From: Escherichia coli
GTDB lineage: Bacteria > Pseudomonadota > Gammaproteobacteria > Enterobacterales > Enterobacteriaceae
Reading direction: 5' to 3' (one strand)
Length of the DNA stretch: 64,000 nt
NCBI RefSeq assembly: GCF_051903065.1
Contig: NZ_CP178438.1
The notes beneath the pieces were generated by a model, which was not told the origin of the DNA, ran no database searches, and saw only the letters and a program-made list of their open reading frames with translations. This document shows, piece by piece, positions 24,702 through 26,865 of this stretch. The translations under genes and the position numbers were made by a program. Numbering within the stretch: position 1 is the first letter of the stretch; each line of letters starts with the position of its first letter.

Positions 24702-24844
24702 GTGTTTTATGGTGACAATAAATAACGCAAGAAAGATTCTACAACGTGTCGACACTCTTCCTCTTTATTTACATGCTTATGCCTTTCATGGTGATGCTGC
24801 CAACTTACTGATTTAGTGTATGATGGTGTTTTTGAGGTGCTCCA

Positions 24845-25120
24845 GTGGCTTCTGTTTCTATCAGCTGTCCCTCCTGTTCAGCTACTGACGGGGTGGTGCG
24901 TAACGGCAAAAGCACCGCCGGACATCAGCGCTATCTCTGCTCTCACTGCCGTAAAACATGGCAACTGCAGTTCACTTACACCGCTTCTCAACCCGGTACG
25001 CACCAGAAAATCATTGATATGGCCATGAATGGCGTTGGATGCCGGGCAACAGCCCGCATTATGGGCGTTGGCCTCAACACGATTTTACGTCACTTAAAAA
25101 ACTCAGGCCGCAGTCGGTAA
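24845..25120 (+). CDS. insA: IS1 InsA
   Basis: Protein identical to the other IS1 copy; GTG start. Confidence 0.9.
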
Positions 25121-25542
25121 CCTCGCGCATACAGCCGGGCAGTGACGTCATCGTCTGCGCGGAAATGGACGAACAGTGGGGCTATGTCGGGGCTAAATCG
25201 CGCCAGCGCTGGCTGTTTTACGCGTATGACAGGCTCCGGAAGACGGTTGTTGCGCACGTATTCGGTGAACGCACTATGGCGACGCTGGGGCGTCTTATGA
25301 GCCTGCTGTCACCCTTTGACGTGGTGATATGGATGACGGATGGCTGGCCGCTGTATGAATCCCGCCTGAAGGGAAAGCTGCACGTAATCAGCAAGCGATA
25401 TACGCAGCGAATTGAGCGGCATAACCTGAATCTGAGGCAGCACCTGGCACGGCTGGGACGGAAGTCGCTGTCGTTCTCAAAATCGGTGGAGCTGCATGAC
25501 AAAGTCATCGGGCATTATCTGAACATAAAACACTATCAATAA
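25039..25542 (+). CDS. insB: IS1 InsB
   Basis: Protein identical to the other IS1 copy. Confidence 0.9.
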
Positions 25543-25556
25543 GTTGGAGTCATTAC

Positions 25557-25988
25557 CCAGATCGTATAGGTCAAAAAAGTCTGTATTTGTCGGGAGCAGG
25601 ATTTTGTGTCCTGTTCGCGTTTCCTTTCTTCTTATTACTGGATAGCAAAAGTACGCTCATCATCTGGTGCAGTATGATCCTCGGCTACAACTTAGGTCCG
25701 ACGATGATGTTTGCCGTGCAGCCAACACTTTTCACCCGCATGTTCGGTACCAAAGTACGATATACCGGCCTTTCTTTTGCTTATCAATTTTCCGCGATTC
25801 TTGGCGGACTAAGCCCCCTTATCGCCTCAAGTTTGCTGGCGCTAGGGGGAGGAAAACCGTGGTATGTCGCTCTGTTTTTATTTGCTGTCTCAGTTCTTTC
25901 CTTTGTTTGCGTCTGGCTGATTGAGCCGACCGATGAACAAGAAACCGCTTCTTACCGCTACATCAGGGAACAATCTCATGAAAACTGA
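25557..25988 (+). pseudogene. 3' fragment of an MFS-type transporter gene, 5'-truncated at the IS1 junction
   Basis: The reading frame is open from the first base after IS1 and encodes only the last ~4 hydrophobic helices (…FCVLFAFPFFLLLD…LGGLSPLIASSLLALGG…YVALFLFAVSVLSFVCVWLIEP…); there is no upstream start or N-terminal half. Confidence 0.6.
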
Positions 25989-26865
25989 ACGAAAAAACGA
26001 GCATTACCTGGCGCTACAACAGGCGTTTGACGCGCCATGGCCTGGGCCTGTAGGAGAGTTAGTGACGCTGGAAAAAGGCAATATTCACCTGCAGATTTAT
26101 CCGCATGATGGTGCCAGGATAACCTCGTTAAAGGCATTTGGTTCTGAAGTATTACGCCAATGGCAGCCGCAGCGTAGAGCTTTTCAGTATGGCTGTTTCC
26201 CAATGGTGCCGTGGGCAGGGCGACTGGGGAATACGACGCTGAATGCTGGTGGGCAATGTTATTCTTTACCCGCCAATAAACCACCACATGCGTTGCATGG
26301 TATGGCTTGTTACTCAACGTGGGAAATCATCGACAAAACAGCAGATTCCCTGACTTTACGTATGCCCCTGGCTTCACCGTGGCCTTGGCAAGGGGAAGTG
26401 ATTCAGACTTTTTTGCTGGAGAACGATGCGCTGGTTTTGCAACTGGAAGTCCATTCATATGCCGATACATTCCCGGCCTCCGCAGGCTGGCATCCGTGGT
26501 TTGCGAAAAAGCTGACTCCGCAAAATACAGAATCGTTGCAGGTGCTTTTTGATGCGGACTGGCAAGAAGAAGCGGGTAGTGATGAACTGCCAACTGGAAA
26601 TCGCATCTCTCCTCAAGTCGGTCCCTGGGATGACTGTTTTGGTTTTTATGACGGGGTGAAGGTTAAGTTACTGTGGCCTGGTAAACTCGCGATGACCATG
26701 ATCTCTTCTGCAAACAGTCTGGTGGTATTTGATAAACAGCCCGATGCCACCTGTATTAACCCGCTGACTCAGGCACCTAACGCAATAAATCTAACGCCGG
26801 AATTGGTGACACCAGATAGGCCGCTGGTTATCGAAACTCGTTGGCAATTTACACCTGAATCTTAA
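25978..26865 (+). CDS. Aldose 1-epimerase (mutarotase) family protein
   Basis: Start codon overlaps the stop of the transporter fragment (ATGA); the protein looks like the galactose-mutarotase-like family. Family assignment is from memory; the start is chosen at the RBS-preceded ATG. Confidence 0.65.
   Translation: MKTERKNEHYLALQQAFDAPWPGPVGELVTLEKGNIHLQIYPHDGARITSLKAFGSEVLRQWQPQRRAFQYGCFPMVPWAGRLGNTTLNAGGQCYSLPANKPPHALHGMACYSTWEIIDKTADSLTLRMPLASPWPWQGEVIQTFLLENDALVLQLEVHSYADTFPASAGWHPWFAKKLTPQNTESLQVLFDADWQEEAGSDELPTGNRISPQVGPWDDCFGFYDGVKVKLLWPGKLAMTMISSANSLVVFDKQPDATCINPLTQAPNAINLTPELVTPDRPLVIETRWQFTPES

Follow-up and report, generated by a model that had tools for sequence, protein, structure and literature searches.

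An IS1-flanked deletion across the yih locus of an Escherichia coli clone, and recurrent IS1-associated deletions at the same locus

The locus considered here lies within a 64,000-nt stretch of Escherichia coli DNA (termed here the window) and consists of three intact genes, the remains of two others, and an insertion sequence between those remains. The left-hand neighbour, yihL (positions 23991-24701, plus strand), is an intact 236-aa open reading frame for a GntR-family regulator and is annotated as WP_000829798.1 in near-identical genomes. It is followed by a remnant of the 5' end of yihM (24709-24789, plus strand), which comprises 81 nt, or 27 codons, of a 981-nt gene and which matches the yihM of the relative M8 exactly; RefSeq annotates this remnant in sibling genomes as a partial hypothetical protein. 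The remnant was overlooked in the first-pass annotation of the window, which placed the insertion sequence, an IS1 (24790-25557, plus strand), after yihL.

To the right of the IS1 the reading frame is open from position 25557, and, as the first-pass annotation had recognized, it encodes the C-terminus of an MFS transporter: residues 307-449 of a 449-aa, ShiA-like metabolite:H+ symporter (termed here MFS2; remnant at 25558-25988, plus strand). Apart from the codon at the junction, this remnant is identical to the C-terminus of the M8 protein WP_001291190.1. (When the complete protein is compared with the NCBIfam model for the shikimate transporter, it reaches 411 bits, short of the equivalog cutoff of 538.) The RefSeq label for the stump is "MFS transporter, missing N-terminus", and it is a pseudogene, a 3' stump without a promoter. 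Next comes an intact gene of the aldose-1-epimerase family (25978-26865, plus strand; 295 aa; Pfam PF01263, E = 3.4e-21), correctly assigned to that family in the first pass, whose start overlaps the MFS2 stop codon by 11 nt. Its product differs from the M8 orthologue at 2 residues and is only 27% identical to K-12 YihR, over 164 residues. A scan for promoter consensus sequences detected nothing promoter-like between the end of the IS1 and the start of the epimerase gene, the sole signal (from the consensus scan only) being the IS1's own left end. The epimerase gene is an orphan remnant, cut off from the rest of its presumed operon, and is probably poorly expressed or silent. The conserved right-hand neighbour, yihX (27006-27605, plus strand), encodes an intact glucose-1-phosphatase and is annotated at the corresponding position in all five of the relatives' loci compared. 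Farther to the right, a 614-aa open reading frame (30276-32120) yielded no match in a Pfam search.

The element at 24790-25557 is a bona fide IS1 of the IS1A type. It shows both the length expected of IS1 (~768 bp; here 768 bp) and the imperfect, ~23-bp terminal inverted repeats (GGTGATGCTGCCAACTTACTGAT and its partner, which match at 18 of 23 positions). Inside it, on the plus strand, are the insA open reading frame (24845-25120), the insB frame (25039-25542) and, at 25096, an A6C motif (AAAAAAC) serving as the insA/insB' programmed -1 frameshift site; an IS1A transposase with a programmed frameshift is annotated here in the sibling genomes in RefSeq. What is absent is the 9-bp target-site duplication that accompanies a simple insertion: the flanking 9-mers are GCCTTTCAT on the left (24781-24789) and CAGATCGTA on the right (25558-25566), and, on recomputed boundaries, no direct repeat flanks the element at any length from 2 to 14 bp (all of which were tested). 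This absence, which is the anomaly under study and leaves the identification of the element as IS1 unaffected, had already been reported in the first pass on the basis of the 9-mers tcctttcat and ccagatcgt; the flanks do indeed differ, but the quoted letters include one base read wrongly and a shift by one position, neither of which affects the conclusion. With a slash marking the point of joining, the observed left junction reads CTTATGCCTTTCAT/GGTGATGCTGCC and the observed right junction GGAGTCATTACC/CAGATCGTATAGG; a hypothetical simple insertion at the yihM site would instead read GGAGTCATTACC/GCCTTTCATTTAAATATG on its right side, and one at the MFS2 site would read GGATGGTTATCAGATCGTA/GGTGATGCTGCC on its left side. 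The ends of the IS1 share no microhomology with the deleted DNA (0 bp at either end).

A second IS1 within the window, inserted into yihF (7380-8147, minus strand), is flanked by a perfect 9-bp duplication (CCAGGCCAG) and therefore serves as an internal control for the appearance of a simple insertion. Because the two copies are 100% identical in sequence, chimerism is not assessable. Their relative age can nevertheless be ordered: in the genome of ECNB21-M121 yihF is intact and carries no IS1, and yet the yih deletion is present, so that the yih event is older than the yihF insertion.

Set against M8 and strain 48, two relatives in which the locus is intact, the window lacks exactly 9,628 bp between two collinear flanks, which retain the gene order and orientation of the intact genomes; exact matching to the M8 locus shows the left flank ending at locus position 10372 and the right flank resuming at 20001. 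The proposal, made from the window alone, that the DNA between yihL and the transporter gene had been lost is thus borne out. In M8 and strain 48 the locus contains yihL, yihM and yihN, followed by genes for a DeoR-family regulator and a sugar kinase (both on the minus strand) and then by a series of plus-strand genes: a YihU-like reductase, an aldolase, a Zn-dependent dehydrogenase, two MFS transporters (MFS1 and MFS2), the aldose 1-epimerase and yihX. Rather than beginning at the point where the window's frame opens, without an adjoining IS1, the MFS2 gene of the intact relatives runs 919 nt further upstream. What the window has lost, accordingly, is the 3' part of yihM, yihN, a YihW-like regulator, YihV-, YihU- and YihT-like enzymes, the Zn-dehydrogenase, MFS1 and the 5' two-thirds of MFS2. 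The Zn-dehydrogenase gene of strain 48 already contains an internal stop, which hints that the cassette was decaying within the group.

The first-pass annotation had pointed out that K-12 has its yihM-yihW sulfoquinovose cluster in this interval, while calling the ancestral content uncertain; the comparison with intact relatives shows that it was not this cluster that was lost. Kaznadzey et al. (2025; PMC12608037) describe, at the same chromosomal site as the 'long' yih cassette, a 'short' cassette consisting of reversed homologues of yihTUVW. This layout (the yihTUVW homologues reversed between yihN and yihX, without yihO, yihP, yihQ, yihR or yihS) is found in intact M8 and strain 48, and the window has none of these homologues; hence the ancestral state was, in all likelihood, the published short cassette plus its neighbours. 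Relative to K-12, the encoded proteins are 72% (regulator versus CsqR, that is, YihW), 67% (kinase versus YihV), 73% (reductase versus YihU) and 67% (aldolase versus YihT) identical, and a protein comparison found no K-12 yih counterpart of MFS1, MFS2 or the Zn-dehydrogenase. The surviving transporter and epimerase genes, which could not be matched to K-12 in the first pass, do not exist in K-12 at all; they belong to a variant of the locus that K-12 lacks, which explains the failure to match them. That variant is not rare: 1,342 of 5,426 complete E. coli genomes contain the right flank (25558-27000) at a coverage of ≥80%.

It might be supposed that no deletion occurred, either because the window preserves the ancestral arrangement and the cassette was gained elsewhere, in other strains, or because the assembly collapsed at a repeated IS1. 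Nothing specific favours this supposition beyond the well-known tendency of assemblies to collapse at IS copies, and it is extremely improbable: yihM and MFS2, which are full-length in hundreds of genomes, are both cut in mid-codon exactly at the IS1 termini, and the same junctions recur in three complete genomes, each assembled independently, that come from Ecuador and China. These genomes were found by searching the 5,426 complete E. coli genomes with junction queries of 70 + 70 nt. Contiguous, 100% matches to the left and right junctions occur together in only 3 of the 5,426, namely ECNB21-M121 (meat, China) and 23CRST027 and 23CRST031 (human faeces, Ecuador), and no genome among the 5,426 carries one junction without the other. 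All three are near-clonal with the window, which shows 0 mismatches to 23CRST027 over 41.4 kb and 9 SNPs to ECNB21-M121 in about 40 kb; the deletion is thus inherited within one clone. When the 9,628-bp segment of strain 48 (the closest intact allele) was used as a query, it was retrieved at ≥99.8% from strain 48, D8, PS10-3 and NZ_CM196106.1, and from none of the three junction-bearing genomes, which argues that the DNA was lost and not simply moved elsewhere.

By one route or another, then, IS1 almost certainly caused the loss of the 9,628 bp. An IS at the junction of a deletion, without a duplication and between collinear flanks, is known to result either from an IS-adjacent deletion or from recombination between directly repeated copies of the IS (PMC11708052). 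The first of these, an adjacent deletion generated by intramolecular replicative transposition from a resident IS1, is the favoured explanation and is given an even chance. Under it, an ancestor with the short yih locus (yihL-yihM-yihN through the epimerase gene to yihX) would first have acquired a simple IS1 insertion, either at nt 81 of yihM or at codon 307 of MFS2. The IS1 transposase would then have joined the distal end of the element to a second site on the same chromosome, whereupon the intervening DNA would have exited as a non-replicating circle, leaving a single IS1 between two unrelated 9-mers. Both this order of events and the attribution to transposase rather than to RecA are deduced from the product. 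The GC content is 36% over nt 1-100 of yihM and 34% in the DNA reaching 30 nt to each side of the right endpoint. IS1 prefers AT-rich targets, so that the local AT-richness of both endpoints fits target choice by the transposase.

The second route requires two simple IS1 insertions in the same orientation, at nt 81 of yihM and at codon 307 of MFS2, followed by RecA-dependent recombination that removes one IS1 together with the interval. This is a real possibility, though one rated short of even: it would give exactly the observed product, the window lineage carries at least 36 IS1 copies (36-37 IS1-matching places per genome, versus a median of 10), and the 5' region of yihM has about three times the IS1 junctions of two control anchors. 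Moreover, the locus of EC23HZZ201 contains a pair of identical IS1 copies in direct orientation, separated by 1.8 kb, one of them a simple insertion at nt 420 of yihM and the other, without a duplication, joining yihN to yihR; the existence of such a pair, at other positions of the locus, makes the recombination route plausible. Two IS1 copies also occur inside the short cassette of 2015C-3121, though inverted. Against this route, two separate insertions within 10 kb would be needed beforehand, and among the 5,426 genomes there is none with either junction alone, and none resembling a precursor, in which both endpoints would be occupied by directly oriented IS1 copies flanked by separate duplications. 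The nearest simple insertion, the IS1 in the yihM of 2015C-3121, has the same orientation and was considered as the ancestral insertion; it was rejected as a precursor, since it sits 1 bp farther left with a duplication of its own (TGCCTTTCA), its IS1 shows 2 SNPs relative to that of the window, and the genomic background is a different one.

Because both routes give an identical product, only intermediates could separate adjacent deletion from direct-IS1 recombination, and because no intermediate occurs among the 5,426 complete genomes, the two are inseparable here. The first-pass reading of an IS1-mediated adjacent deletion therefore holds insofar as DNA was lost at an IS1 that lacks a duplication; as a statement of the strict mechanism, it is one of two readings of the same product. 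An adjacent deletion predicts a fixed IS1 end shared with a simple insertion in some relative; no relative among the 5,426 has IS1 at only one of the two sites, so that such a fixed end would be presumptive. It is, finally, conceivable that no IS1 was present at either site beforehand and that aberrant transposition introduced a new IS1 and made the deletion in one step, a concept proposed for IS5 and IS481 (PMC11708052) and compatible with the lack of intermediates among the 5,426 genomes. This is quite improbable: such an event is not documented for IS1; the IS-associated deletions of the long-term evolution experiment all arose by insertion followed by adjacent deletion (PMC11708052); and, with the clone sampled in only three genomes, the lack of intermediates carries little weight. 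Adjacent deletion from a resident IS1 remains the favoured explanation.

The window's deletion is not an isolated occurrence at this locus. Of the 5,426 complete genomes, 64 have an IS1 within ~570 nt of the yihM start; the element has plus orientation in 28 of them (at least 14 distinct junctions) and minus orientation in the other 36 (at least 13 distinct spans). Two control anchors gave lower figures: 5 genomes with 5 junctions at yihN and 14 genomes with 4 junctions at yiiG. The 5' region of yihM is thus a modest IS1 hot spot, enriched roughly threefold over the two anchors; the stronger notion that it is exceptional was discarded, given the size of that enrichment and the fact that 1 of the 3 IS1 events characterized at yiiG is likewise a deletion, so that the yih locus is not alone in undergoing IS1 deletions.

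Exact junctions were characterized in 24 loci. Among the events characterized at the yih locus are at least 17 independent deletions without a duplication (that of the window clone included) and only 4 simple insertions with duplications (2015C-3121, EC23HZZ201, MRE162 and 504211). The deletions affect both cassettes. Within the short cassette, the window clone keeps 81 nt of yihM and ends on the right in MFS2; 1008S19 keeps 121 nt and likewise ends in MFS2; EC09 keeps 137 nt and ends in the epimerase gene; 21EVA keeps 75 nt and ends at the 3' end of the epimerase gene; and J6 keeps 420 nt and ends upstream of MFS1. Within the long (sulfoquinovose) cassette, the left junction lies at yihM nt 222 in the LD27-1 group (right endpoint in yihQ), nt 367 in B1.H1.18 (yihT), nt 358 in the NT1F10 group (yihS), nt 109 in ET5 (yihR) and nt 75 in the PigCaeca_1 group (csqR); it lies at nt 241 in BKQWHE, nt 98 in WP4-S18, nt 101 in VG888 and nt 132 in KMi006. 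EC20-4B-2, also with the long cassette, has lost 305 bp within yihM, and in the long-cassette strains LH13-b and MSI001 the deletion starts in yihN. Compared with the IS1 of the window, the variants at the locus have between 0 and 51 differences, and this confirms the deletions as independent.

Certain target sites were used more than once, by lineages unrelated to each other. WP4-S18 and KMi006 share the site CGCGGAACA, with their IS1 elements in opposite orientations, and nt 420 of yihM was used in both J6 and EC23HZZ201. The latter two were considered as product and precursor, respectively, and rejected as such, their IS1 variants differing at 9 positions and their left flanks lying 52 SNPs apart in 2.9 kb. 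In no related strain does a simple insertion coincide with a junction of any of the 17 deletions, nor was the classical nested pattern, in which one end is fixed and the other varies, observed among them. The right endpoints within the long cassette cluster at positions 10927-11586 of the MG1655 locus, where the cassette is richest in AT (a bin of 32% GC). The simplest reading of this recurrence is that the preference of IS1 for AT-rich targets acts upon a dispensable region bounded by more constrained genes. A further reading, regarded as rather unlikely, is that the yih region of E. coli is lost recurrently through IS1, perhaps under selection, and that the window's deletion is one such case.

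The event in the window is a real, and ordinary, member of a long-known class of IS-mediated deletions, for which PMC11708052 provides a review. Classical IS1-promoted adjacent deletions, such as those of gal and of chloramphenicol resistance, were reportedly described by Reif and Saedler in 1975. Like these, the window's deletion retains an IS at the junction, lacks a duplication, has collinear flanks and removes kilobases of dispensable DNA; unlike them, it has no documented pre-existing fixed end, so that it is most safely termed IS1-flanked, its strict mechanism being surmised. A second parallel is provided by the E. coli long-term evolution experiment, where deletions of the rbs operon next to IS150 are said to have arisen in parallel (Cooper et al., in 2001). 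Adjacent IS150 deletions have been re-analysed in PMC11708052. As at rbs, a dispensable sugar-catabolism cluster has been lost at yih repeatedly and independently through IS-associated deletions. The rbs deletions, however, proceed from one resident IS150 with only the other end varying, whereas at yih the IS1 junctions are lineage-specific on either side and the IS1 variants differ.

With respect to the cassettes of Kaznadzey et al., the window's presumed ancestor corresponds to the short form, whose proteins are 67-73% identical to CsqR, YihV, YihU and YihT of K-12; the window itself, by contrast, has neither form and exemplifies a third, cassette-less state made by IS1. Their paper (PMC12608037) makes no mention of IS1, of yihM, of a cassette-less state, or of the Zn-dehydrogenase, MFS and epimerase genes that adjoin the short cassette. 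It does report that the short cassette of Nissle 1917 is not induced by sulfoquinovose (PMC12608037); a test of growth on sulfoquinovose, as suggested in the first pass, would therefore be uninformative. Part of what is described here was thus already known, inasmuch as the stumps are annotated as pseudogenes in RefSeq and the short cassette has been published (PMC12608037); the recurrent erosion of the yih locus by IS1 is a minor addition that may be useful.

The main value of this analysis lies in correct annotation: both the long and the short yih cassette are missing from the strain, and the genes that survive beside the IS1 belong to a variant of the yih locus that K-12 lacks but that roughly one in four E. 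coli genomes has. Recurrent deletions of this kind are the expected outcome of IS1 biology within a dispensable, locally AT-rich region. If selection were responsible, rather than AT preference and neutrality alone, then loss of yihM and yihN along with the yih transporters or enzymes would be adaptive in IS1-rich lineages. Either way, the many independent IS1 deletions across the region from yihM into the yih cassette may interest those who study sulfoquinovose metabolism or IS-driven genome reduction.

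A second copy of IS1, 100% identical to the one at the junction of the yih deletion, lies on the minus strand of the window (7380-8147) inside yihF, a gene of the DUF945/YdgA family. This copy is flanked by a perfect 9-bp target-site duplication, CCAGGCCAG, at 7371-7379 and 8148-8156 of the window. Because the near-clonal genome ECNB21-M121 has the yih deletion without the yihF insertion, the latter is the younger event, and its donor could be the yih copy. Between fabY and yiiE the window encodes, on the plus strand, a 614-residue ORF (30276-32120), for which a Pfam search returned no matches and which is annotated in the RefSeq siblings (near-clonal genomes sharing the window's deletion junctions) as two features, namely a partial hypothetical protein and a 'transposase' (WP_226156879.1). 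ISKpn26 occurs at this position in ECNB21-M121, and other genes (an alpha/beta hydrolase and nadS) occur there in the relative M8; the fabY-yiiE interval is a variable islet.

The window's closest intact relative at the yih locus is strain 48, whose short cassette (the alternative yih variant) includes a Zn-dependent dehydrogenase annotated with an internal stop (L005 8470-9480). Decay of the short cassette may already have been under way before the clone represented by the window underwent its IS1 deletion.

In other E. coli, IS1-flanked deletions recur at this locus. Within the yihL-yihX region of the compared loci (L006-L017, L019-L024 and L028-L030), at least 17 independent deletions that lack a target duplication, and whose left ends fall in yihM or yihN, have removed parts of either the short or the long (K-12-type) cassette; simple IS1 insertions account for only four events in the same set. 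Where the long cassette was affected, right endpoints are concentrated in that cassette's 660 bp of highest AT content, around the start of yihQ. EC23HZZ201 carries two identical IS1 copies in direct orientation (L030 1463-2230 and 4061-4828), spaced 1.8 kb apart, one being a simple insertion and the other lacking a duplication and associated with the loss of 6.2 kb extending from yihN to yihR. The arrangement is a natural state that is a single recombination short of a larger IS1-flanked deletion. In HB37 (L020), a minus-orientation IS1 lies at yihM nucleotide 353, to the right of which a class 1 integron region (intI1 and a truncated SulP-family gene) occupies the place of yih sequence; the yih locus seems to have been the insertion site of a resistance island, or to have been replaced by one.

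Exact IS1 target sites are also shared by unrelated lineages. At yihM nucleotide 420 (CGGGAAACG), EC23HZZ201 (L009/L030) and J6 (L017) harbor different IS1 variants, and their flanks differ by 52 SNPs over 2.9 kb; at the yihQ site (CGCGGAACA), IS1 is oppositely oriented in WP4-S18-ESBL-08 (L014) versus KMi006 (L022). Such reuse of target sites across unrelated lineages suggests that there are hot spots for IS1 insertion at the level of individual sites.
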